Virus record (IMG/VR): IMGVR_UViG_3300016722_000010
Span: 1-26,509 of that record
From: a virus
Lineage: Duplodnaviria > Caudoviricetes
Strand: one strand, 5' to 3'
Length of the DNA stretch: 26,509 nucleotides
Positions 4,318 to 20,496 of this stretch are shown here, piece after piece. Numbering within the stretch: the first letter of the stretch is position 1; each line of letters begins with the position of its first letter. A program made the position numbers and the translations under genes. The notes beneath the pieces were generated by a model, which ran no database searches, was not told the DNA's origin, and saw only the letters and a list, made by a program, of their open reading frames with translations.

Positions 4318-5994
4318 ATGACGCAAATTAATTTTCTACATTCTGCCCCCATACCACCCGCGCCGCGCGAACTGATGTCGCTTCGCCCATATCAGGAAGA
4401 AGCAAAATCGGCCGTGCTTACGCAATGGGCCGAAGGCATCAAGCGCACACTGCTGGTGCTGGTGACGGGCGGCGGCAAGACGATCATTTTCAGCAAGGTG
4501 ATTGAGGAGCAGGTGCGCAAAGGCGAGCGCGTGCTGGTGCTGGCACACCGGGGCGAGTTGCTTGACCAGGCGGCGGATAAACTGGCCGCTTCTACGGGGC
4601 TCAAATGCGCGACCGAAAAAGCCGAACGCAGTTGTCTGGATGACGATGACCAGCGGTGGTACCGCGTTGTGGTTGGCAGTGTGCAATCCATGATGCGCCC
4701 GCAACGGCTGGAACGTTTCCCGGCTGACTACTTCGGCACCATCGTCGTGGACGAGGCGCACCATGTGCTGGCGGACGGGTACCAGCGCATACTGGATCAC
4801 TTTGGGGATGCTAAGGTGTTGGGTGTGACCGCCACGCCTGACCGTGGCGACATGCGCAACCTGGGCGCGTTTTTTGAAAAACTGGCCTACGAGTACACCC
4901 TGCCACGCGCAATCAGAGAGGGCTTCCTGTGCCGCATTGAGGCCATGACCATTCCGCTCAAACTGGACATCAGCGGGGTCAAGATCAGCGGCGGGGATTA
5001 TGCGCTGGGAAGCCTTGGAACAGCGCTTGATCCGTATCTTGAGCAGATTGCCGATGAAATGGCGAAGGTTTGCATGAACCGAAAGACGGTTGTATTCCTT
5101 CCGTTGATTGCCACCAGCCAGAAAATGCGGGGGTTGTTGGAAAAACGGGGATTCCGCGCGGCAGAAGTCAACGGAAACAGCGCTGACCGCGAGCAGGTGC
5201 TCACCGCGTTTGACCGAGGCGATACCAATGTGCTGTGCAATAGTATGCTGCTGACCGAGGGCTGGGACTGCCCGAGCGTGGATTGTATTGTGGTGTTGCG
5301 GCCGACCAAGATACGGAGCCTGTACTGTCAGATGGTGGGGCGAGGAACCCGGCTTCATCCGGGCAAGGAAAACCTACTGTTGTTGGATTTTCTGTGGAAC
5401 ACAGAACGGCATGAGTTGTGCCACCCAGCTGCGCTAATTGCGGAGAACGAAGAAGTATCCAATCAGATGACGCTCAACGCCGAAGCCGCGCCCGGTATGG
5501 CAACGGACATTGAGGAAGCGATGGAAAAGGCTACCTCCGATGTGGTTGCCCAGCGCGAGGAAGCGCTTGCCAAGGCGTTGGCCGAAATGAAGCACCGTAA
5601 GCGCGCGCTGGTGGATCCGTTGCAGTTTGAAATGAGCATACAGGCCGAGGATTTAAGCGGATACGTGCCCGCGTTCGGCTGGGAAATGGCGCCCGCCAGC
5701 GACGCGCAGAAAGCCACGCTCGAGAAGCTGGGCATACTGCCCGACGAGATCGACAACGCCGGAAAAGCCGCCAAGCTGCTGGACAGACTAGCGGCGCGCC
5801 GTAGCGAAGGACTGACCACCCCGAAACAGATACGGTTTTTGGAAGGTAAAGGCTTTCAGCACGTAGGCACGTGGGAGTTCAGCGCGGCTAAAAGCCTGAT
5901 TGACCGGATTGCGGGGAACGGTTGGAGGGTGCCGCAGGGAGTTATTCCGAGTAGTTACACGCCGCCGCAGACCGTTGGGGGTGAGATTGCTTGA
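4318..5994 (+). CDS. Superfamily 2 DEAD/DEAH-box helicase
   Basis: LRPYQ, TGGGKT, VDEAHH, TATP, LTEGWDCP, QMVGRGTR motifs. Confidence 0.95.
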   Translation: MTQINFLHSAPIPPAPRELMSLRPYQEEAKSAVLTQWAEGIKRTLLVLVTGGGKTIIFSKVIEEQVRKGERVLVLAHRGELLDQAADKLAASTGLKCATEKAERSCLDDDDQRWYRVVVGSVQSMMRPQRLERFPADYFGTIVVDEAHHVLADGYQRILDHFGDAKVLGVTATPDRGDMRNLGAFFEKLAYEYTLPRAIREGFLCRIEAMTIPLKLDISGVKISGGDYALGSLGTALDPYLEQIADEMAKVCMNRKTVVFLPLIATSQKMRGLLEKRGFRAAEVNGNSADREQVLTAFDRGDTNVLCNSMLLTEGWDCPSVDCIVVLRPTKIRSLYCQMVGRGTRLHPGKENLLLLDFLWNTERHELCHPAALIAENEEVSNQMTLNAEAAPGMATDIEEAMEKATSDVVAQREEALAKALAEMKHRKRALVDPLQFEMSIQAEDLSGYVPAFGWEMAPASDAQKATLEKLGILPDEIDNAGKAAKLLDRLAARRSEGLTTPKQIRFLEGKGFQHVGTWEFSAAKSLIDRIAGNGWRVPQGVIPSSYTPPQTVGGEIA

Positions 5995-7748
5995 CGCATG
6001 AGCTTGTCGTTGACAACTTCGCGGGCGGCGGTGGGGCTTCCACGGGAATCCGAATGGCACTGGGGCGCGACGTGGATATAGCCGTCAACCACGATGAGAG
6101 CGCCATCGCCATGCACAAGGTTAACCACCCCACCGCGCGTCACTATCAGGAGGATGTGTGGGCGGTTGATCCTGCTATGGCCTGTGCCGGCCGACCTGTC
6201 GGGCTGGCGTGGTTCTCGCCCGATTGCAAGCATTTTAGCAAAGCCAAAGGCGGAAAGCCTTGCGACAAGAACATTCGCGGGCTTGCATGGGTGGCTGTGA
6301 AATGGGCAAAGGCAGTACGCCCGCGTGTGATCATGATGGAAAACGTGCAAGAGATTCAGACGTGGGGGCCGCTTTTGCCGAATGGGAAACCAAACCCGGA
6401 GAAATCCGGACAGACCTACAGGCGTTTCATCCGGGCGCTGGAACGGCTGGGCTACAAGGTGGAAACCAATATCCTTGTGGCGGCTGATTACGGCGCGCCC
6501 ACCACCCGCGAACGGTGGTTCCTGATTGCCAAGTGCGACGGGAAGCCTATCGTTTGGCCAGAGCCGACGCACATGCCGCGGGGAAAGTTTGAGACGCTCT
6601 ACGGGTGGGCGGCGCAGGGTATAAAGCCTTGGGTGCCGGTGGCGGATGTGATTGATTGGTCGTTACCGTGCCCGTCGATATTCGACACCAAGGACGAAAT
6701 CAAATCCCAGTATGGTTTCAACGCAGTGCGACCGTTGAGCGAGAACACGCTGGCGCGGATTGCGCGCGGAATCAAACGGTATGTGATTGACAACCCTGAG
6801 CCGTTCATCGTTGATATGAAATTCCAGAATGAACCGCAAAGCATTACACGTCCGCTCTCTACAGTTACCGCGGTTAATTCAAAGTTGATCGTTACCCCCA
6901 TGATGGTATCCATCGGGCAAACAGGCGGCGGGGATAACCGTTCACGTGGCGTGGATGACCCGCTGCGCACCGTTGTCAGCAAAAACGAAAGTTGCCTGTG
7001 CACGCCGGTGCTGATGCGCAACAACGAAAACGCCGTGGGAACCAGCCCGCTCGACCCGCTGCAAACGGTGATTGCCAGCAATCATTTCATGGTGGTTGCT
7101 CCATCGCTGATCCAATATCACCAAGAGCGAGCCGGAGAGGCTGCACGGGGGCAAGCGGTTGACAGGCCGGTAATGACGCTGGATGCAAGCAACCGTTACG
7201 CGATGGTATCTGCATTCCTGCATAAATACTACGATGGCGGGTACACCGGCCCCGGTAGCGACATGCGCGATCCTGCCCCAACCGTAACCACCATCGACCA
7301 CAATAGCCTCGCCTGCGCCTATCTGACTCAGTTCAACAACCACTGCATCGGTCAGAATTTGACCGATCCTATCAACACCATCACAGCCGGTCAGGGGCAT
7401 TTCGGCGAGGTACGTGCCTTTCTGCTGAAATACTATGGCAACGAAGGATACAGCGGGTGTAACGAGCCGTTGCCGACCATCACCACCAAAGATCGATTCG
7501 GGCTGGTCACGGTCGCTGGCGTGGATTACGCCATCGTGGACATAGGGCTGCGGATGCTGACGCCCCGTGAACTGTTCGACGCTCAGGGCTTCCCGCATGA
7601 CTACGAAATCGAACAGGGCGCAGATGGACGCGTGCTGAGCAAGGCTGAGCAGGTTGCACGCTGCGGGAACGCCGTACCGCCGCAGTTGGCAGAGGCGCTG
7701 GTACGGGCAAACCTGCCGGAGATGTGCGAAGAAAGGAAAATTGCATGA
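5991..7748 (+). CDS. C5 cytosine DNA methyltransferase with a long, repetitive variable region
   Basis: Motif I FAGGGG, IV SPDC, VI MENV, VIII PTTRERWF, IX RMLTPRELFDAQGFP, X CGNAV; TTG start overlaps the helicase stop. Confidence 0.95.
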   Translation: MTHELVVDNFAGGGGASTGIRMALGRDVDIAVNHDESAIAMHKVNHPTARHYQEDVWAVDPAMACAGRPVGLAWFSPDCKHFSKAKGGKPCDKNIRGLAWVAVKWAKAVRPRVIMMENVQEIQTWGPLLPNGKPNPEKSGQTYRRFIRALERLGYKVETNILVAADYGAPTTRERWFLIAKCDGKPIVWPEPTHMPRGKFETLYGWAAQGIKPWVPVADVIDWSLPCPSIFDTKDEIKSQYGFNAVRPLSENTLARIARGIKRYVIDNPEPFIVDMKFQNEPQSITRPLSTVTAVNSKLIVTPMMVSIGQTGGGDNRSRGVDDPLRTVVSKNESCLCTPVLMRNNENAVGTSPLDPLQTVIASNHFMVVAPSLIQYHQERAGEAARGQAVDRPVMTLDASNRYAMVSAFLHKYYDGGYTGPGSDMRDPAPTVTTIDHNSLACAYLTQFNNHCIGQNLTDPINTITAGQGHFGEVRAFLLKYYGNEGYSGCNEPLPTITTKDRFGLVTVAGVDYAIVDIGLRMLTPRELFDAQGFPHDYEIEQGADGRVLSKAEQVARCGNAVPPQLAEALVRANLPEMCEERKIA

Positions 7749-9982
7749 CCTACGACGTAAAAGAGCTGCTTTCCGCGATCAACCCCTCCATGCTCAGTTA
7801 TCAGGAATGGGTGAACGTGGGAATGGCGCTCAAGGAGGGCGGATACACCGCTTTCGACTGGGACGCATGGAGCCGCAGTGATAGCGCCCGCTACCATGCC
7901 GGTGAATGCTACAAGAAATGGGATTCCTTCGATGGGGATTCTAAGCCCGTGACCATGGGCACGGTGGTGCAGTACGCCCGCGATCAGGGCTGGCGTCCTG
8001 CTGCATCAGACGATGGTTACGAACTCGACTGGGATAGCCAGATCGGGGGACACGGCGTTGTGGTCGATCACAACTGGCTGGAGGCGCGCGAGGTTGCCGC
8101 GCCTTCCGCCAATTGGGACGGCGTACGCGAGCTGACCACATACCTGGAAACTCTGTTCGAAGCCAGCGAGAACGTCGGCTATGTGACCGACTGTTACGAA
8201 AAAGACGGCCGGTTCCTGCCTACGCGTGGCAATTATGACCGTACGGCCGGGGCGCTGATTGAGGCGCTCAGTAAGTGCGGCGGGGACATCGGCGCGGTGA
8301 TCGGCGACACTACGCCGGAAGCGGGGGCATGGATCCGTTTTAACCCGCTGGACGGCAAGGGCGTAAAGAACGAGAATGTGACCGATTTCCGCTATGCGCT
8401 GGTAGAAAGCGATTCCATGGAGATTGACCAGCAAAACGCTATTCTCCATGAATTGGAATTGCCCATTGCCATTATGGTACACAGCGGTGGTAAGAGCCTC
8501 CACGCGATCGTCAAGATCAACGCCGCCAGCTACGATGAGTACCGCAAGCGTGTGGATTACCTGTATGAGGTGTGTGCTAAAAACGGCCTTAAGATCGATA
8601 CGCAGAACCGCAACCCTTCCCGCTTAAGCCGCATGCCGGGCGTTACCCGCAACGGAAACAAGCAGTACATCGTAGCGCGCGAGATCGGAAAACCGAGCTG
8701 GGACGAATGGAAGGAATGGGTAGAGAGCCAAAACGATAATCTGCCCGAGCCTGAAAGCATCGCCACGATGTGGGACAATCTGCCTCCGCTGGCGCCCGCG
8801 CTGATTGACGGGGTGCTCCGCATGGGCCACAAACTACTGCTTGCGGGCCCCAGCAAGGCGGGCAAGAGCTACGCGCTGATAGAGCTGTGCTGTGCCATCG
8901 CTGAAGGTAGGAAATGGTTGGGCTGGCAATGCACGCCGGGGCGCGTAATGTATGTGAACCTTGAACTGGATCGCGCAAGCTGCCTGCACCGCTTCAAGGA
9001 TGTGTATCTGGCGCTGGGATACGCGCCCGCCCATCTAGCAAGCATCGACGTTTGGAACCTGCGCGGCAAAGCAATCCCAATGGATCAACTCGCGCCCAAG
9101 CTGATCCGTCGGGCGACCAAGAAGGGATACACAGCCATTGTGATTGACCCGATTTATAAGGTGATCACCGGCGATGAAAACAGCGCCGATCAGATGGCCA
9201 ATTTTTGCAACCAGTTTGACAAGGTGTGCACGGAATTGGGTTGCGCGGTGATTTATTGTCATCACCACAGCAAGGGCACACAGGGCCAGAAGCGTTCCAT
9301 GGATCGCGCCAGCGGAAGCGGCGTGTTTGCCCGCGACCCAGATGCGATGCTGGACATGATCGAGCTGGACGTAACCGACGCGCTGCGCAAGGCCGAGGGC
9401 GACCGCGCCGTATGCCGCACTTACGAAATGGCTTTCGACCGGCTGCTGGGCGACAAGTGGCACGTCGATGTTAGCCAGGATGACCGATGCAGCGCGGCCG
9501 CCATGCGCGACCATGCCGCCAATCTGCTCACACGGGCGCAGGAAGCGACTATTGCGCAGGAGCTTGCCGATGCACGCAACCGCGCGGAGAAGCGCACGGC
9601 GTGGCGAATTGAGGGCACCCTGCGCGAGTTTGCGCCCTTCCCGCCGCTGAACCTATGGTTTGATTACCCGGTGCATCAGAGCGACCCGTCGGGCGCGCTG
9701 GGCGACCTGAGTGCAGACGGAGAGCAGCCGCCTTGGAAAAAAGCGGTTGATAAACACAAGAAAGTTGCTGCCGCTAAGAAAAGCAACTACAAACTGGAAT
9801 TTGAGAGCGTGCTTCAATCCTGTGGTGCCGGAAAGCAGACAACGTTCAAAGATTTACAGGACTACTATGGCGGTGAAAAGTCGGACGATACCCTCTACCG
9901 GTGGATAAAAAAGTACGGGTATCAACTCGACAAAAACACGGGGATTATTATAAAAGCAGAACAAAAGGAGGTTTCACAATAA
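7745..9982 (+). CDS. Primase-helicase (N-terminal PriCT-2-like domain, primase domain, AAA_25/RepA-type helicase)
   Basis: YQEWVNVGMALK...W..WS (PriCT-2-like), LVESD, HSGGKSLH, NPSRLSRMPG, Walker A GPSKAGKS, VIDP, HHHSKG, ASGSG; start ATG 7745 after AAGGA. Confidence 0.92.
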   Translation: MTYDVKELLSAINPSMLSYQEWVNVGMALKEGGYTAFDWDAWSRSDSARYHAGECYKKWDSFDGDSKPVTMGTVVQYARDQGWRPAASDDGYELDWDSQIGGHGVVVDHNWLEAREVAAPSANWDGVRELTTYLETLFEASENVGYVTDCYEKDGRFLPTRGNYDRTAGALIEALSKCGGDIGAVIGDTTPEAGAWIRFNPLDGKGVKNENVTDFRYALVESDSMEIDQQNAILHELELPIAIMVHSGGKSLHAIVKINAASYDEYRKRVDYLYEVCAKNGLKIDTQNRNPSRLSRMPGVTRNGNKQYIVAREIGKPSWDEWKEWVESQNDNLPEPESIATMWDNLPPLAPALIDGVLRMGHKLLLAGPSKAGKSYALIELCCAIAEGRKWLGWQCTPGRVMYVNLELDRASCLHRFKDVYLALGYAPAHLASIDVWNLRGKAIPMDQLAPKLIRRATKKGYTAIVIDPIYKVITGDENSADQMANFCNQFDKVCTELGCAVIYCHHHSKGTQGQKRSMDRASGSGVFARDPDAMLDMIELDVTDALRKAEGDRAVCRTYEMAFDRLLGDKWHVDVSQDDRCSAAAMRDHAANLLTRAQEATIAQELADARNRAEKRTAWRIEGTLREFAPFPPLNLWFDYPVHQSDPSGALGDLSADGEQPPWKKAVDKHKKVAAAKKSNYKLEFESVLQSCGAGKQTTFKDLQDYYGGEKSDDTLYRWIKKYGYQLDKNTGIIIKAEQKEVSQ

Positions 9983-13869: not shown

Positions 13870-15019
13870 TGCCGTCAAGGTTTGGAATGTGAAAACCGGC
13901 GCGACACGCTCTGGAAAGACATACGGCGATTACTTTATGATCCCCAAGCGGCTGCTGGCGGGGCATGGTCTGCCGGGCCTGAACGTGATCCTGGGCAACA
14001 CCAAGGGCACCATACAGCGCAACCTGATTCAGCCGATGCAGGATATATACGGTGTGGGATTGGTCAGCGATATCCATAGCGACAACAGCGCGGAGCTGTT
14101 TGGCGAAACCTGCTACTGCCTTGGTGCGGATAACGTCAAGCACGTGAATCGCCTGCGCGGCAGCAGCATCAAATACTGTTATGGTGACGAGGTGACAACC
14201 TGGCATCCGGAAGTATTCCAGATGCTCAAGAGCCGCCTTGACAAGGCGTACAGCATTTTTGAGGGTACCTGCAACCCAGACGGCCCTTCCCATTGGTTCA
14301 AGCGCTTTCTGGATGATCCAGAATTACAGGGCGATATTTACCAACAGGCGTACACCATTGACGATAACCCATTTAACCCGCCCGAGGTTGTCGCCCGTAT
14401 GAAACGTGACTATGCCGGCACGGTTTACTACGACCGGTACATACTTGGGTTGTGGGCGGTTGCTGATGGACTGATCTACCCACAGTTCAAGGAGTGCATC
14501 ACGGAGGCTATACCTGCGTCGTTCGACCGCTACGTCGTGTCAATGGACTACGGCGTGATGAATGCTACGTCGATGATCCTGTGGGGTAGAAACGGGCGAC
14601 ACTGGTACGCGCTGGATGAGTTTTACTATTCCGGCCGGGATAGCCGCAACCAGAAGACAGACGAGGATTACCTGAACGACCTTAACAGGCTTTGCGTTGG
14701 AAAGCGCATCAACCTTCTCGTGATAGATCCATCCGCATCTAGCTTTATCATTCTGGCACAGCGTCGGGGATACCGTATCACGAAGGCGGACAACAACGTG
14801 CTGGAGGGCATCCGTGAAACATCCACCGCCATCCAGCGTAAACGTGTATTTATCCATCCAAGATGCCGGAATCTTATTAAAGAGGCCGAAGGGTACGCAT
14901 GGGATCCGGAAGCCTTGGAGGATAAGCCTGTAAAAGTCAACGACCACGCCATGGACGCGTTGCGTTACATGGTTAATACTATCGTCAGCGAAAAGCGCGC
15001 GGCGATTGTGCCGAGGTGA
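13829..15019 (+). CDS. terL: Terminase large subunit, PBSX family
   Basis: GATRSGKT, YGDEV, TCNP, SMDYG, VIDPSA, DHAMDALRY motifs. Confidence 0.96.
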   Translation: MPFLSPKQMEYRRNAVKVWNVKTGATRSGKTYGDYFMIPKRLLAGHGLPGLNVILGNTKGTIQRNLIQPMQDIYGVGLVSDIHSDNSAELFGETCYCLGADNVKHVNRLRGSSIKYCYGDEVTTWHPEVFQMLKSRLDKAYSIFEGTCNPDGPSHWFKRFLDDPELQGDIYQQAYTIDDNPFNPPEVVARMKRDYAGTVYYDRYILGLWAVADGLIYPQFKECITEAIPASFDRYVVSMDYGVMNATSMILWGRNGRHWYALDEFYYSGRDSRNQKTDEDYLNDLNRLCVGKRINLLVIDPSASSFIILAQRRGYRITKADNNVLEGIRETSTAIQRKRVFIHPRCRNLIKEAEGYAWDPEALEDKPVKVNDHAMDALRYMVNTIVSEKRAAIVPR

Positions 15020-16488
15020 GAATAATGATCACGATCAATGCCGGTTTGCTGGACACGGAAGGATTGCCCTCATCCATGCTGTTAATAGCGTTACTGGGTA
15101 AACAGGACGAAACTTGCCGGTCGCGACTGAATAAGCTGCATGAGTACGCTCACACGCGGCACGCGATCAGCGGCAGGCAGCGGCTGAGGGGGTTGCCTAA
15201 TAACCGGCTGCCGCACGACCTGCCTGGCTACATCGTTACGGTATCCAGCGGGTATCTGGTGGGCGAGCCGGTACAGTATGCCAAGGCTGACGCGGCTGAC
15301 CAGCTCGCGTTTGACACGCTCAACGCTGCGCTTAAAATGTGCGATACCGCCAGCGTGGACGCAGAACTGGCGGTTGACGCCGCCGTGTACGGCAAAGGCG
15401 TGGAACTATGCTATGCCGATCGGGACGCACAGCCAAAGGTAGCGCAGGTGGATCCCCGGAGCGCGTTTGTGGTCTATGATGATACGGTGGAGCATCTTCC
15501 GCTGCTGGGGATTGTGCGGTATGAGATGGTGGATCAACAGCTGGCGAAAAAGGGTGAGCGTGTGGACGTTTACACGCCTGCCCTGTGTGTGCACATGGAG
15601 CGCGCGGGCGCGGAGGTGCCGCATGAGGTTTCCCGCGAGCCACATTACTTTGGCGCGGTGCCAATGATCGAATACTGGAACAATGCGCAGGAAACGGGCG
15701 ATTTTGAGCCGGTGCTTGATCTGATTGACGCCTATGATACGTTGCAAAGTGACCGGCTGAACGACAAACAGCAGTTCACGGACGCGATCATGGTATTCAA
15801 GGGATTGGCATCACTGGAAAATGACTCGGACGATCCGGCGCTTGAGGACGGTACTGACAGCGAAACGGATACTACTGTCGTTCCGACACTTACCCCCGCC
15901 GAACGCTTGCGCCAGACCAAGATGTTATTCATGCCCGGGCAGGATACAGACGCTACGTTCCTCACCAAGCCGGACGCAGAAAGTGGCAACGAGCTTTTGC
16001 GCAAAAGCCTTGCAGGCGACATACACAAATTCTCGTACGTGCCGGATCTGACCGATGAGAATTTCGCGGGAACTACCTCGGGCGTGGCCATGCGCTTCAA
16101 GCTCTTCGGGTTGGAAATGCTGGTCAACACCAAGGAGCGTTGGTTCCGGGAAGCCCTGCGTACCCGGCTGAAATGTATGATTCAGTTTTTAGCCAAAAAG
16201 GGCATGGCGAGGATCAACGTGGATGATGTGCAGATCACGTTTACCCGGTCGCTGCCCGTGAATGAGCTGGAAATTGCGCAAATGGCGTCTGCGTATCAAG
16301 GTATCCTTCCGGATGAACTGATCCTGGCGAAAATACCGGGAGTGGATGATCCCAAGGCAACGCTTGCCATGCTCCAGCAGCAGAAAGCGGAGGACGTTAA
16401 GCGGCAACAGGCGATGTTCCCGCGCTTTGACGCGAGCAACGCGCCTGCGGAAGATCCGCAGACAGGCACAACCGACGAGGAGGTATAA
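15016..16488 (+). CDS. Portal protein, SPP1 gp6-like (start may be ATG 15025)
   Basis: NNRL...YLVGEPV, PMIEYWNN..TGDFE.V.DLIDAYD..QSD, FAGTTSGVAMRFKL, ITFTRSLPVNELE. Confidence 0.95.
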   Translation: MRIMITINAGLLDTEGLPSSMLLIALLGKQDETCRSRLNKLHEYAHTRHAISGRQRLRGLPNNRLPHDLPGYIVTVSSGYLVGEPVQYAKADAADQLAFDTLNAALKMCDTASVDAELAVDAAVYGKGVELCYADRDAQPKVAQVDPRSAFVVYDDTVEHLPLLGIVRYEMVDQQLAKKGERVDVYTPALCVHMERAGAEVPHEVSREPHYFGAVPMIEYWNNAQETGDFEPVLDLIDAYDTLQSDRLNDKQQFTDAIMVFKGLASLENDSDDPALEDGTDSETDTTVVPTLTPAERLRQTKMLFMPGQDTDATFLTKPDAESGNELLRKSLAGDIHKFSYVPDLTDENFAGTTSGVAMRFKLFGLEMLVNTKERWFREALRTRLKCMIQFLAKKGMARINVDDVQITFTRSLPVNELEIAQMASAYQGILPDELILAKIPGVDDPKATLAMLQQQKAEDVKRQQAMFPRFDASNAPAEDPQTGTTDEEV

Positions 16489-16491
16489 CGT

Positions 16492-18066
16492 ATGGCGCCG
16501 CTCACGTACTGGCAGCAGCGCGCCATACGCCGCGTGCTGGCGGCACAACGGCAGGAGGACAACGCGCTTGTTATCATCCGTCGGGCGGTGCAGCGGGCAC
16601 TGGCGGAAATACAGGATGCGGTTGAGCGCATCGGAAGAAACTTTCAGAAGGCATTTGACCTTACGCCCGAACAGGCGCAGGAAATGCTTGATGCGCCTGC
16701 CGACCATGCGGAATATGAGCGCCTGCTGCGTGAGATAGCCGACATGCCCGATGGTCCCGAACGCGTACGGTTACAGGCGCGTGCATCATCCGGCGCATAT
16801 GCCTACCGGATCAGCCGGGAAGAGGCTATGCGCGCCTACGTGGAAGCCCAGTCGGTCATCCTTGGCGGGAAGACCAAACAGGCGCTTGAAACAACGCTGC
16901 TAAAAGTCGGGGCAGCCGAAGCACTCGGGCAACGTGCAGAACTGACGCAAGCTGGCGCGGTAGCGTCATTCGTTGGGGATAACCTTTCGGCTACTCGCGA
17001 GATTCTGCGCACGCCGTGGAATGGTGGAGATTACTCCTCCCGCATTTGGGGCAATACGCAGGCGTTGCGTAAATCGCTGGACGATACCATCATGGGCGGG
17101 TTCCTGTCCGGCAGGTCCTCGCGGATGATGGCCGCCGACATCGCCAAGCAGATGAGCATGGCGTATTATCAGGCGGAACGGCTTGTGCGCACCGAGGTCA
17201 ATCGCCTGCAGAACGCCGTGGCGCTTAAGGAACTGCTGAACGCTGGAATCCTTGAATACGAATGGCTTGCGACACTGGATAAGCGAACCTGCTCGCTATG
17301 TGGGGCAATGGATGGCAAGGTGTTCCGGATCACGGAGGCTGTAGTTGGGAAAACGCTTCCGCCCCTTCATCCCTATGACCGCTGCATCGTTGTGCGGCAT
17401 GTGGCTGCGACAGTCGAGCAGACACGCTTTGCGCGGGATGAGCAGGATAACGGCATTAAGGTTCCTGCGAGCACCACCTACGAACAGTGGTCGGCGCAAC
17501 AAGGTTCTCAGTTTACGGTACAGCAGAAGATGCAACGCAACCTCTCTTCCGATCAAGCCCAATATGACACGTACCGGAAACTGTTAGGGAAAAACGTGTT
17601 TACGGCTGACTTCAAAGCCTTCCAGCAAGCAAAATATTACAATGCGCAAGCCTATGAAATGCTGAAACTAGATTATAAGCGCCGTAACGCGCTGGCGTCC
17701 GATCCGTTGCTCGCGCTTCCGAATGCGAATATTGCGACCGCCGCGCCCGAGAAATTCACGCGGTACCTTTTCAACCCAGAGCATGCAGATGGTTGGGCTA
17801 AAGGCGTTGCATTTGACAGTCGCTTGGGCTATAATGTAAACAACTGGGAGGAGCTCAGGGACGCGATCCTGAAAGGGGCAGTTAGTTACCCAAGCACCTT
17901 GAAGGGCGAGAACCAGCACGGTAATCGCTATGAACAGCGGATGATCCTATATGGAATCAAAGGGACCCCTGCAAATGTTCTGGTGGGGTGGTTGGCAGAT
18001 AAAGACAGTACGCACATGACAACGGCGTACATCAAGGAGGTGAAACCCGGTGAAGAAGCAAATTGA
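16492..18066 (+). CDS. Minor head protein (SPP1 gp7/MuF) with a C-terminal DUF6883-like putative toxin domain
   Basis: MuF core (YSSRIW.N, AERLVRTE, ATLDKRTCSLC, PPLHP.DRC), linker DQAQY..Y..LLG, then LPNA...EKFTRYLFNPEH..G.AK...F...LGY...W. Confidence 0.88.
   Translation: MAPLTYWQQRAIRRVLAAQRQEDNALVIIRRAVQRALAEIQDAVERIGRNFQKAFDLTPEQAQEMLDAPADHAEYERLLREIADMPDGPERVRLQARASSGAYAYRISREEAMRAYVEAQSVILGGKTKQALETTLLKVGAAEALGQRAELTQAGAVASFVGDNLSATREILRTPWNGGDYSSRIWGNTQALRKSLDDTIMGGFLSGRSSRMMAADIAKQMSMAYYQAERLVRTEVNRLQNAVALKELLNAGILEYEWLATLDKRTCSLCGAMDGKVFRITEAVVGKTLPPLHPYDRCIVVRHVAATVEQTRFARDEQDNGIKVPASTTYEQWSAQQGSQFTVQQKMQRNLSSDQAQYDTYRKLLGKNVFTADFKAFQQAKYYNAQAYEMLKLDYKRRNALASDPLLALPNANIATAAPEKFTRYLFNPEHADGWAKGVAFDSRLGYNVNNWEELRDAILKGAVSYPSTLKGENQHGNRYEQRMILYGIKGTPANVLVGWLADKDSTHMTTAYIKEVKPGEEAN
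17807..17835 (+). promoter_or_regulatory. Putative internal sigmaA promoter for the downstream small ORF
   Basis: TTGCAT (17807-17812), 17-nt spacer, perfect TATAAT (17830-17835), inside the toxin-coding segment. Confidence 0.5.
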
Positions 18067-18220
18067 ACTGTATGAGCATGTAACGCTCAAAGATGGGCGT
18101 GAGGGTGCTGTTGTTGAGTTGCTCGGCGATGATACGCTGTTGATCGACATTGGGAGTTCGCCGGCCGACTGGGAAACCATCGAAGTGAAACGCGAGGATA
18201 TTGTTGTAAGCATTGACTGA
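18050..18220 (+). CDS. 56-aa acidic protein, DUF4926-like, candidate immunity protein (absent from the ORF track)
   Basis: AAGGAGGTG RBS (18034-18042), GTG start, MKKQIELYEHVTLKDGREGAVVELLGDDTLLIDIGSSPADWETIEVKREDIVVSID*; overlaps the MuF stop. Confidence 0.8.
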   Translation: MKKQIELYEHVTLKDGREGAVVELLGDDTLLIDIGSSPADWETIEVKREDIVVSID

Positions 18221-18221
18221 T

Positions 18222-18249
18222 ACCGCCAAGCGAAAGCATGGCGGTTTTT
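18222..18249 (+). terminator. Intrinsic terminator after the candidate immunity gene
   Basis: ACCGCCA-(agc GAAA gca)-TGGCGGT followed by TTTT. Confidence 0.75.
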
Positions 18250-18260
18250 CTATGGCAACC

Positions 18261-18291
18261 AGCGGCTACCCCATGCGGGGCGGCCGCTTTT
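18261..18291 (+). terminator. Second terminator-like hairpin
   Basis: AGCGGC-ta-CCCC-atgc-GGGG-cg-GCCGCT followed by TTT. Confidence 0.5.
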
Positions 18292-18358
18292 GCATACCCC
18301 CGACCTGCCGGGCAATGCAGGGCAAAAAGCCGACGGGCGTTAAACGGAGGTAGACCAC

Positions 18359-18955
18359 ATGAATACCATGCATACCTATATGCCCTTGAATTTGCAGTTC
18401 TTTGCCGAGCCTGCGCTAGAGGCCCCTTCTGCTGATGCTGGCGCCGATGATCCGGGCAAAGCTGGCGATCAGCCGGCCGCTCCCAAGACTTTCACGCAGG
18501 AAGAAGTGGACAAGATTGTTCAGAGCCGCCTGGCAAAGGAAGCTAAGAAGAACGCCGACGCAGTGGCTGCTGCGCGTACCGAAGCGCAAAAGCTGGCAAC
18601 TATGAGTGCCGAGGAAAAGGCCGCGCATGAGCAGCAGGAGCGCGAAACAAAGCTTGCCCAACGCGAGGCTGAGATCGCGCGCCGAGAATTGCGCGCGACT
18701 GCTCTGCAAACGCTCGGTGAAAAACAGCTGCCTGCCGAGCTGGCCGACGTGCTGGACTACACCGACGCGGATAAGTGCAGCGCGTCCATTGCCCGCGTTG
18801 AAAAAGCGTACCGTGCTGCCGTGCAAAAGGGCGTTGAGGAACGCATGAAAGGTAACCCACCGCCCGCCGCAACCGGCAAGCCCGCTGGTACGGCTCCGCA
18901 GGGCTTGAAGGGCGCCGTGGCCTTGTACTACGAGGCTGAAAAGAAGAAAGGATGA
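18359..18955 (+). CDS. Capsid scaffolding protein (DUF4355-like)
   Basis: LNLQFFAE N-terminal motif, KTFTQEEVDKIVQSRL, coiled coil, AVQKGVEERMKG.PP. Confidence 0.9.
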   Translation: MNTMHTYMPLNLQFFAEPALEAPSADAGADDPGKAGDQPAAPKTFTQEEVDKIVQSRLAKEAKKNADAVAAARTEAQKLATMSAEEKAAHEQQERETKLAQREAEIARRELRATALQTLGEKQLPAELADVLDYTDADKCSASIARVEKAYRAAVQKGVEERMKGNPPPAATGKPAGTAPQGLKGAVALYYEAEKKKG

Positions 18956-18960
18956 ACTGA

Positions 18961-19932
18961 ATGGCTATCACGCTTGCTGAGGTGCAGAAGAACACCACGG
19001 ACGCCCTCCAGATTGGCGTCATCGATGAGTTCCGCAAAAACAACTTCCTGCTCAACAACATGCCCTTTGCCGATGCGGTTTCCCCCGTGGGTGGTGGGGG
19101 CACGCTAACCTATGGCTATACCCGCCTCATCACCCAGCCCACCGCCGCGTTTCGCGCGATCAACAGCGAGTACACGCCCCAGAACACCGCCAAGCAGCGT
19201 TATACCGCTGACCTCAAGGTATTCGGTGGCGCGTTTGAGATCGACCGCGTGCTTGCCAAGATGGGGGGCATTGTGGATGAGGTACAGCTCCAACTGGAGC
19301 AGAAGATCAAGGCTGCGCAGGCGTTGTTCAACGATACCGCCATCAACGGCGACAGCGCTGTGGATGCCAACGCCTTTGATGGTCTCGACAAGGCGTTGAC
19401 CGGCTCCAGTACGGAACTGATTCCGTCGGCGGCTATCGACCTGTCGACCAGTGCCGCCGTTACTACTAATGCCACCGCGTTCCTCGATCTGCTGGACGAA
19501 TTCCTGATGGGCCTTGACGGCACTCCCAGCGCCATCATGGGCAACACCAAGCTCATCGCCCGCATCCGCGCCTGTGCGCGTCGCGCGGCCATGTACAATG
19601 TGACCAAGAACGACTGGGGCCAGCAAGTCGAAAGCTATGGCGTAATTCCGCTGGTTGACCTGGGTGCCAAGCCGGGCAGCAACAACCCCATCGTGTCCAT
19701 TGGCACCGGCGACAACGCTGGCTTGACCAGCCTGTACGTCGCGCGCTTGGCGCTGGACGGCTTCCATGGCGTGAGCCTCGCGGGTGTGTCGCCCATTCAG
19801 TCGTGGATGCCGCACAACAACCCCAACGGCGAGGAAAAGGCGGTACAGCGTGGAGGCGTCGAAATGGTCGCCGCTGTTGCACTCAAAGCTACCAAGGCGG
19901 CTGCGGTGCTCCGCAAGATCAAAGTGGCGTAA
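18961..19932 (+). CDS. Major capsid protein
   Basis: 323 aa directly after the scaffold; MAITLAE..., AAFRAINSEY, INGD...FDGL; strong C/G-ending codon bias. Confidence 0.92.
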   Translation: MAITLAEVQKNTTDALQIGVIDEFRKNNFLLNNMPFADAVSPVGGGGTLTYGYTRLITQPTAAFRAINSEYTPQNTAKQRYTADLKVFGGAFEIDRVLAKMGGIVDEVQLQLEQKIKAAQALFNDTAINGDSAVDANAFDGLDKALTGSSTELIPSAAIDLSTSAAVTTNATAFLDLLDEFLMGLDGTPSAIMGNTKLIARIRACARRAAMYNVTKNDWGQQVESYGVIPLVDLGAKPGSNNPIVSIGTGDNAGLTSLYVARLALDGFHGVSLAGVSPIQSWMPHNNPNGEEKAVQRGGVEMVAAVALKATKAAAVLRKIKVA

Positions 19933-19944
19933 GGAGGTGCCAAA

Positions 19945-20496
19945 ATGCCCAGAATCTTTGCGCCCAATGACGGGCACAATTACAACGCGGGCGGCGTGCT
20001 GTTCCAGTATGGAGCCGCCGCCCTTCCCCTGGGTTCTGCGATCGCCGCAGAGTTTACCGCCGCCGGGTATATGGTCGATACGTCTAAGCACGCGCTGACC
20101 CCGTTTGACACCCTCCCGCGTGCAGCACTGGACAGGATCGCCCTGTACCTTGATCTGACGCTGGATGCGGAGGACGGCAAGTATGAGGTGCTCCGCGACA
20201 TAGAAGGCGTGATCTCCACCGCCAAGCGTACCGCTCTCACCATCACGTCTGTTGCAGGTACAGCCAGTGGTGACACCAAGATTACCGTTGCCGGCGAAGG
20301 CACGGGGCAGCTGGTGTACAAGATTACGGATGCGGCGCTGACACCGCTGTACCGTGATTACGCGGGCGATTGGACGGAATTTACCGATGGCGACGATATT
20401 TCGGCCGCTACTGGCAAAAAGGTCAACGTGGCCGAGATTGACGCAAACGGTGATGTTATCGGTTTCGGATCCGCGACTGTGACCGCCAAGGCGTAA
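19945..20496 (+). CDS. Putative capsid accessory/decoration protein (N-terminal RIxAPN domain, helical HeH-like segment, C-terminal beta-rich Ig-like domain)
   Basis: AAGGAGG RBS; C-terminal LTITSVAGTASGDTKITV...DISAATGKKVNVAE...SATVTAKA is Thr/Ala/Val-rich. Confidence 0.65.
   Translation: MPRIFAPNDGHNYNAGGVLFQYGAAALPLGSAIAAEFTAAGYMVDTSKHALTPFDTLPRAALDRIALYLDLTLDAEDGKYEVLRDIEGVISTAKRTALTITSVAGTASGDTKITVAGEGTGQLVYKITDAALTPLYRDYAGDWTEFTDGDDISAATGKKVNVAEIDANGDVIGFGSATVTAKA

Follow-up and report, generated by a model that had tools for sequence, protein, structure and literature searches.

The window, by which we mean the whole stretch of 26,509 nucleotides analysed here, is a 26.5-kb partial virus record in which the genes run from replication through terminase, portal and head to tail. 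Within the head region, the gene of a MuF1 minor head protein starts 3 nt after the stop of the portal gene and is followed by a small overlapping gene and then by the scaffolding gene, Table 1. No integrase was found among the 33 ORFs scanned in this partial record, so that the phage is only possibly temperate. Homologous loci sit in Bacillota genome contigs, and the host of this phage is probably a member of the Bacillota. Elsewhere in the window, the major capsid gene is followed by a gene (19945-20496) with an S-layer SbsC C-terminal-like domain (PF18316, E 3.9e-15), whose product is probably an Ig-like capsid decoration protein, and a C5 DNA methylase gene (5991-7748) is flanked by genes for a superfamily-2 helicase and a primase-AAA protein (region 5991-9982).

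Table 1 Features of the MuF locus, in window coordinates
Feature	Position	Strand	Support
SPP1 gp6-like portal gene	15016..16488	+	PF05133, E 5.2e-95; directly upstream of the MuF gene
MuF1 minor head protein with C-terminal extension, 524 aa	16492..18066	+	phrog_115 minor head protein, E 4.6e-74; TIGR01641, 80.7 bits (cut-off 39.65)
MuF core domain, aa 196-300	17077..17391	+	PF04233 (Phage_Mu_F), E 4.6e-16, 60 bits (cut-off 29.6)
Linker, aa 336-404	17497..17703	+	Precedes unrelated tips as well
DUF6883 (BECR-Tox3) tip, aa 405-524	17704..18066	+	Pfam match and predicted BECR RNase fold
Conserved residues of the tip	K421 (17752), Y425 (17764), K437 (17800), T511 (18022)	+	Alignment of relatives
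Variable residues of the tip	H431 (17782), H508 (18013)	+	Alignment of relatives
Shine-Dalgarno-like AAGGAGGTG of the partner gene	18034..18042	+	Inside the K-E-V codons of the tip; 7 nt before the start
Acidic partner gene, 56 aa, predicted SH3/KOW-like beta-barrel	18050..18220	+	Conserved linkage and purifying selection
Candidate terminator or processing site: hairpin with a short T run behind the partner gene	18222..18251	+	MFE -15.9 kcal/mol, z -2.96
Capsid scaffolding gene	18359..18955	+	PF14265, E 2.1e-26
Major capsid gene	18961-19932		After the scaffolding gene; weak capsid-family matches below cut-off

Contigs from two further studies match positions 17943-18202 with one difference and 17729-17892 with none, and the matching contigs from the runs compared (4 of the 19 listed) contain no joints within the gene. 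With near-exact contigs from further studies and no joints, an artefact of assembly is ruled out for this sequence. No RNA data set containing the locus was listed, a result that does not bear on its expression. A separate protein, P0181 (333 aa, from a 1641-nt contig), has 303 aa identical to this MuF protein and then 30 unrelated residues; its divergence right after the MuF core could reflect a frameshift, a misassembly or a tip exchange.

The first-pass annotation, which was made from the letters of the DNA, had read the gene as a MuF domain ending near PPLHPYDRC, a linker and a C-terminal domain resembling DUF6883, and the profile searches agree with this division. The Pfam match to the MuF domain stops at aa 300, just past PPLHPYDRC (aa 290-298), the linker is present, and the profile search that had been proposed for the tip places DUF6883 at aa 409-515 (nt about 17716-18036), above the curated cut-off (E 3.2e-16, 60 bits, cut-off 27); the tip searched alone against PF21814 reaches 63.3 bits against the same cut-off. 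The linker also occurs in five MuF proteins of at least 400 aa that bear other tips, and is missing from P0099, a close relative bearing DUF6883. An NCBIfam match to ZorB1 (E 0.12, cut-off 400) was dismissed. Three MuF1 or MuF2 proteins with a DUF6883 tip (P0004, P0022 and P0045) carry an intein-like insert (Intein_splicing/HINT) just past the MuF core, which might represent either a genuine intein or a release module that cleaves itself; only P0022 exceeds the intein-domain cut-off.

The partner gene and its linkage to the tip

The small ORF begins with GTG, overlaps the end of the MuF gene by 17 nt including its stop, and encodes a protein with 14 D/E against 6 K/R, as counted from its sequence. 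Motifs similar to AAGGAGGTG precede the partners in related loci. The small acidic ORF with its ribosome-binding site had been proposed as a gene overlapping the tip and is confirmed as such; the accompanying remark that the ORF track had missed it may refer to another track, and the mechanical list of ORFs of 50 aa or more includes 18050-18220. With a profile built from this ORF and seven homologues from the protein search, partner homologues were found behind the tip in every evaluable locus, 68 of 68 viral (where they follow it directly) and 29 of 29 genomic; elsewhere in the viral loci the profile had no match. A viral locus was considered evaluable if at least 250 nt lay downstream of the match; 4 of 72 fell short of this and were excluded as truncated, as was 1 of the 30 genome loci. 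The two sets share loci and contain redundancy, with 69 distinct tips among 101 loci by a rough clustering, and, because the loci were found with patterns from close relatives, the linkage counts describe this clade only. The constant downstream position means that the small ORF is more than a chance reading frame. Among 50 DNA-backed partners, pN was lower than pS in 1223 of 1225 pairs, with a median pN/pS of 0.22 in the 18 unsaturated pairs, and the 56-aa ORF is a real gene under purifying selection.

Of 200 shuffled sequences, two folded as well as the hairpin behind the partner gene, which a scan for consensus terminators did not list; a promoter scan found one site where 1.2 were expected. 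Short contigs from three runs match 18255-18299 and differ upstream, where they carry hairpin-like sequence, hinting that the swappable module ends near there; these are single contigs of low depth.

The partner had also been likened to DUF4926, and here a distant resemblance stands while formal membership does not. The protein has no Pfam match at E<=1, so that the name DUF4926 can be applied only in the sense of a distant likeness. DUF4926 (PF16277) matches 20 of 57 partner homologues weakly at E<=1 (best 2.2e-4), an hhalign comparison of the partner family with six annotated DUF4926 proteins gave a probability of 67.6 (E 5e-5, 53 columns), and an Atlas search with the partner returned, at row 18 and with a score of 0.88, a cluster with 17% DUF4926. 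By these sequence comparisons the partner is at most a distant DUF4926 relative, which is likely but not proven. Its structural model is a small beta-barrel (pLDDT 89.9) for which a fold search gave only generic SH3, KOW and Tudor matches, the best at E 0.067. We consider the partner likely to be the immunity protein of the tip, and the two together very probably constitute a toxin-immunity module.

Predicted fold and candidate active site of the tip

An AlphaFold2 model of the tip, built from 146 sequences, has a mean pLDDT of 94.5 and consists of three helices (residues 15-22, 28-41 and 48-61 of the model) followed by a four-stranded sheet, which corresponds to the pre-alpha helix and alpha-beta1-4 core of the colicin-like BECR fold. 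In a Foldseek search with this model, the CdiA-CT toxin of Klebsiella 342 (6CP9) takes ranks 1-4 (E 2.1e-3, prob 1.00, TM 0.68) and that of E. coli 3006 (6CP8, EC3006) the fifth; no match reached E<=0.001, and the tip is 15-19% identical to 6CP9. A VIA comparison with 48,161 chains gave the same order, with 6CP9 (Z 10.8, rmsd 2.4, 103 aligned residues) as the only row with Z>=8 and 6VEK (EC3006) next, at Z 7.6 with an rmsd of 3.5 over 96 residues. The entries at rows 3-5 and 7-13 likewise belong to toxins, toxin-antitoxin pairs or toxin-immunity pairs, BrnT, colicin D and RelE among them. Judged on the predicted model, the best match of the tip among solved structures is thus the CdiA-CT tRNase of Klebsiella 342, followed by that of E. 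coli 3006. Searches of the PDB by sequence (tip profile, partner profile and single tip) gave chance matches only, among them a DeNovoTIM match covering 21 residues, which was dismissed. The earlier guess of a nuclease-type toxin is thereby supported by both structural searches and narrowed to a predicted BECR-fold RNase nearest to CDI tRNases, and we hold with good confidence that the tip is a BECR RNase.

The alignment of relatives singles out four positions: K421 is conserved in 137 of 139 sequences, Y425 in 139 of 141, K437 in 143 of 145 and T/S511 in 140 of 145, and 130 of the 137 relatives with full coverage of these columns (of 145) have all four. K421 and Y425 are also invariant in ten of ten distant plasmid-borne homologues. 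Histidines are far less constant. The pre-alpha His that is frequent, if not universal, in colicin-like BECR domains is absent: the helix has K421 and Y425, and H431 lies in the following loop. A His at the latter position is present in 8 of the 10 distant plasmid homologues, in 20 of 141 alignment rows and in only 17 of the 130 relatives with the conserved set, 82 of which have Asn instead; H431 therefore cannot be the catalytic His of the whole clade and was rejected as such. Position 508 holds R, H or K in 97 of 145 sequences and Trp in 30.

The Kp342 and EC3006 CDI toxins have Lys-Tyr-Thr triads, cut uncharged tRNA-Ile(GAU) near its 3' end (PMC9086364, PMC6851490) and, besides the triad, need His and one or more Arg residues (PMC9086364). 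We mapped these triads onto the tip by taking the end residues of each aligned range as anchors and counting from them with no gap, so that the register follows from the ranges. In Kp342 (model 10-113 = 150-261) this places K421 on Lys157, T511 on Thr255 and H508 on Arg252, with Y425 one residue off Tyr160; in EC3006 (model 8-113 = 195-336) K421 falls on Lys204, Y425 on Tyr208 and T511 on Thr330. We infer that K421, Y425 and T511 of the predicted tip are in register with the Lys-Tyr-Thr triad of these two enzymes.

Conserved residues of this kind bear on whether the tip is an enzyme at all. It could be a catalytically dead domain, or an accessory domain merely binding RNA or DNA, with the small gene as a chaperone or passenger, and both the loss of the family His in most of the clade and the inactive PBECR described in Mu gp30 (Iyer et al. 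2017) would fit such a domain. We regard this as very improbable, given that K421, Y425, K437 and T/S511 are retained in 130 of 137 relatives, and that the partner, which is under purifying selection, was never lost in the 97 evaluable, partly redundant loci.

If the tip is an active RNase, its target is, in our moderately confident estimate, tRNA. An active BECR RNase might instead cut mRNA, rRNA or CRISPR/defence RNA: Iyer et al. (2017) proposed such targets for MuF-fused PBECR domains and argued that phage BECR domains may spare tRNA, and BrnT, RelE and MqsR entries match the tip too, with Z 5.2-6.8 in the VIA comparison. Phages, besides, rely on the tRNA of their host. The two structures that match best (Z 10.8 and 7.6), however, belong to enzymes that cut tRNA and share the triad, and tRNA is the usual target of colicin-like BECR members characterized so far, according to a recent preprint (Pham et al., August 2026, bioRxiv 10.64898/2026.08.28.747851), which makes another RNA target improbable. 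The reading that we prefer remains that of a tRNA-cutting tip.

Exchange, spread and possible delivery of the tip

Among 77 homologues of this N-terminus, 46 are at least 400 aa long, and 9 of these 46 bear this tip; other C-termini, among the 38 homologues scanned, include EndoU, PBECR2, deaminase, TNT and CdiA_C domains. P0195, which has a DUF6883 tip, is 96-98% identical to P0203, P0197 and P0192 over 329-358 aa and differs from them in its C-terminal end, and P0009 and P0186 share 94% identity over 341 aa, after which they are unrelated. The C-terminus thus varies among relatives, as expected for the polymorphic toxin first proposed, and N-termini that are 94-98% identical end in different tips, which rules out invariance. 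The protein with the closest N-terminus, P0003 (87% identity), has a tip only 64% identical to this one, whereas P0001 and P0002, with N-termini of 54-56% identity, have tips that are 68% identical, a pattern that fits recombination between tip alleles. As judged from these protein comparisons, tips are shown to be exchanged between MuF N-termini. When viral sequences were scanned with the first 335 aa, none of the 17 candidates proved to be a relative, so that the swaps are seen at the protein level only, without neighbouring genes.

Several side observations concern tips of related proteins. P0184, with an N-terminus 57% identical to this one, has an unrelated tip without a Pfam match, in which an EVQYHT-like motif presumably recalls RelA/SpoT-type (Apk2) synthetases. 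In a Lactiplantibacillus genome, a second DUF6883 lies in a 192-aa frame beside the MuF-fused copy (locus L106, G003:C40) and is possibly an orphan tip cassette. Finally, a 6.6-kb contig of higher depth from the same sample as the window matches the end of the tip at 18011-18044, and the sequence at its loose ends resembles a related tip followed by the start of a related partner, as though a second phage with the same module were present in one community.

The domain itself is widespread, with at least 1047 clusters (at 50% identity) matching the tip at E<=0.001. Among 50,697 GenBank phage records the tip had no match, and a protein search that excluded DUF6883 clusters (Atlas features) gave only unnamed matches with scores under 0.9. 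Beyond MuF1, the DUF6883 tip is borne by MuF2 proteins and by WXG100 and VG15 carriers, and on plasmids a stand-alone DUF6883 precedes DUF4926 genes.

These settings matter for where the tip would act. A toxin-antitoxin module that happens to sit on a head gene could act only inside the lysogen or producing cell, in prophage maintenance, abortive defence or superinfection exclusion, with no active delivery from the virion. The plasmid copies lend themselves to such a view, as the DUF4926 gene lies directly downstream of the stand-alone DUF6883 in 5 of 10 plasmid hits, a layout like that of type II toxin-antitoxin systems, and beside an unannotated match in a sixth; MuF relatives without a tip (P0183) also exist. 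The tip is, however, fused in frame to a class of protein that is ejected from the virion (80alpha gp44, PMC7290940), and the presence of the same domain on WXG100 secretion carriers argues for export. We consider a purely intracellular role unlikely, and somewhat favour active delivery of the tip from the virion.

Taken as a whole, the locus is in our view reasonably likely to encode a MuF protein with a swappable DUF6883 RNase tip, most likely a tRNase, together with a likely immunity partner. The tip would be a metal-independent RNase of the predicted BECR fold with a Lys421-Tyr425-Thr511 site like that of CdiA-CT Kp342 and EC3006. From known MuF biology, the partner would be co-translated with the MuF protein, and by blocking the basic active site of the tip this acidic protein could keep the producing cell safe while virions are assembled. 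A small number of MuF copies would then enter the virion and, by analogy with gp7/gp44-type proteins, be ejected with the DNA, and the freed tip may cut the tRNA of a newly infected host cell that lacks immunity. Such cleavage might damp host translation, affecting defence expression or the lysis-lysogeny choice, or it might harm non-lysogens. A far more specific version, which we put forward as a rather doubtful speculation, is that Clostridia phages of gut and bioreactor eject an isoacceptor-specific tRNase of the Kp342/EC3006 type with their DNA and cut host tRNA within the first minutes, most of the clade through a His-free Lys-Tyr-Lys-Thr site, and that an SH3-like barrel, differing from the CdiI folds known for these toxins, confers immunity.

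Comparison with known systems

DUF6883 was placed among the BECR RNases only in 2026, when Pham et al. described it as BECR-Tox3, a predicted RNase of the colicin-like BECR group with a downstream DUF4926 and frequent fusion to MuF. The first-pass annotation was thus right about the anatomy and the kind of system, a MuF protein with a DUF6883 tip and a DUF4926-like partner, and the arrangement is not new; as both the type of system and the combination of domains were already described, the locus carries little surprise. The present pair shares with BECR-Tox3 the Pfam tip, the MuF fusion and the position of the small downstream partner, but its partner lies below any DUF4926 threshold, and where the group has its pre-alpha His this tip has a Tyr, followed at a distance of six residues by a variable His. 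The abstract of the preprint reports tests of BECR-Tox2 rather than Tox3, and its main text mentions neither Kp342 nor EC3006 as a model, though its Table S1 may list the same residues. The terms DUF6883 and BECR-Tox3 led only to this preprint, and neither an assay of DUF6883 nor a tested MuF-borne tRNase was found in the literature searched, which leaves most subscription journals outside its reach. What appears to be new is the specific structural template, CdiA-CT Kp342/EC3006, and the candidate active-site residues that the model suggests for a DUF6883 tip.

MuF polymorphic toxins of temperate Firmicutes phages are established (Jamet et al. 2017, PMC5576092; PMC5512222, PMC12226406, PMC11699363), with 2-3 copies of the MuF protein per head (PMC12226406), and Apk2 and Bxa are MuF toxins for which toxicity and immunity were tested (PMC12226406, PMC11699363). 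The protein studied here has the same MuF1 domain after the portal gene, a variable C-terminus and a small downstream ORF (56 aa, below 150). The tested tips that we found are (p)ppApp synthetases and an ADP-ribosyltransferase, whereas the tip here is a predicted RNase; the locus offers a compact candidate pair of the RNase type, for which putative catalytic residues and a putative class of substrate can be named.

Compared with CdiA-CT Kp342 (6CP9) and EC3006 (6CP8/6VEK), the tip has a like predicted fold (Z 10.8 and 7.6) with Lys, Tyr and Thr in register by the range ends, at an identity of 12-19%, but its carrier is a MuF phage head protein rather than CdiAB, and the His/Arg set is variable in its clade. 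The likely immunity partner differs too, being a predicted 56-aa SH3/KOW-like barrel rather than a beta-sandwich dimer or an alpha-solenoid. With the ejection proteins SPP1 gp7 and 80alpha gp44, finally, the protein shares the N-terminal MuF/gp7 domain (TIGR01641) and the place between the portal and capsid genes, to which it adds a linker, a toxin-like tip and a partner gene.
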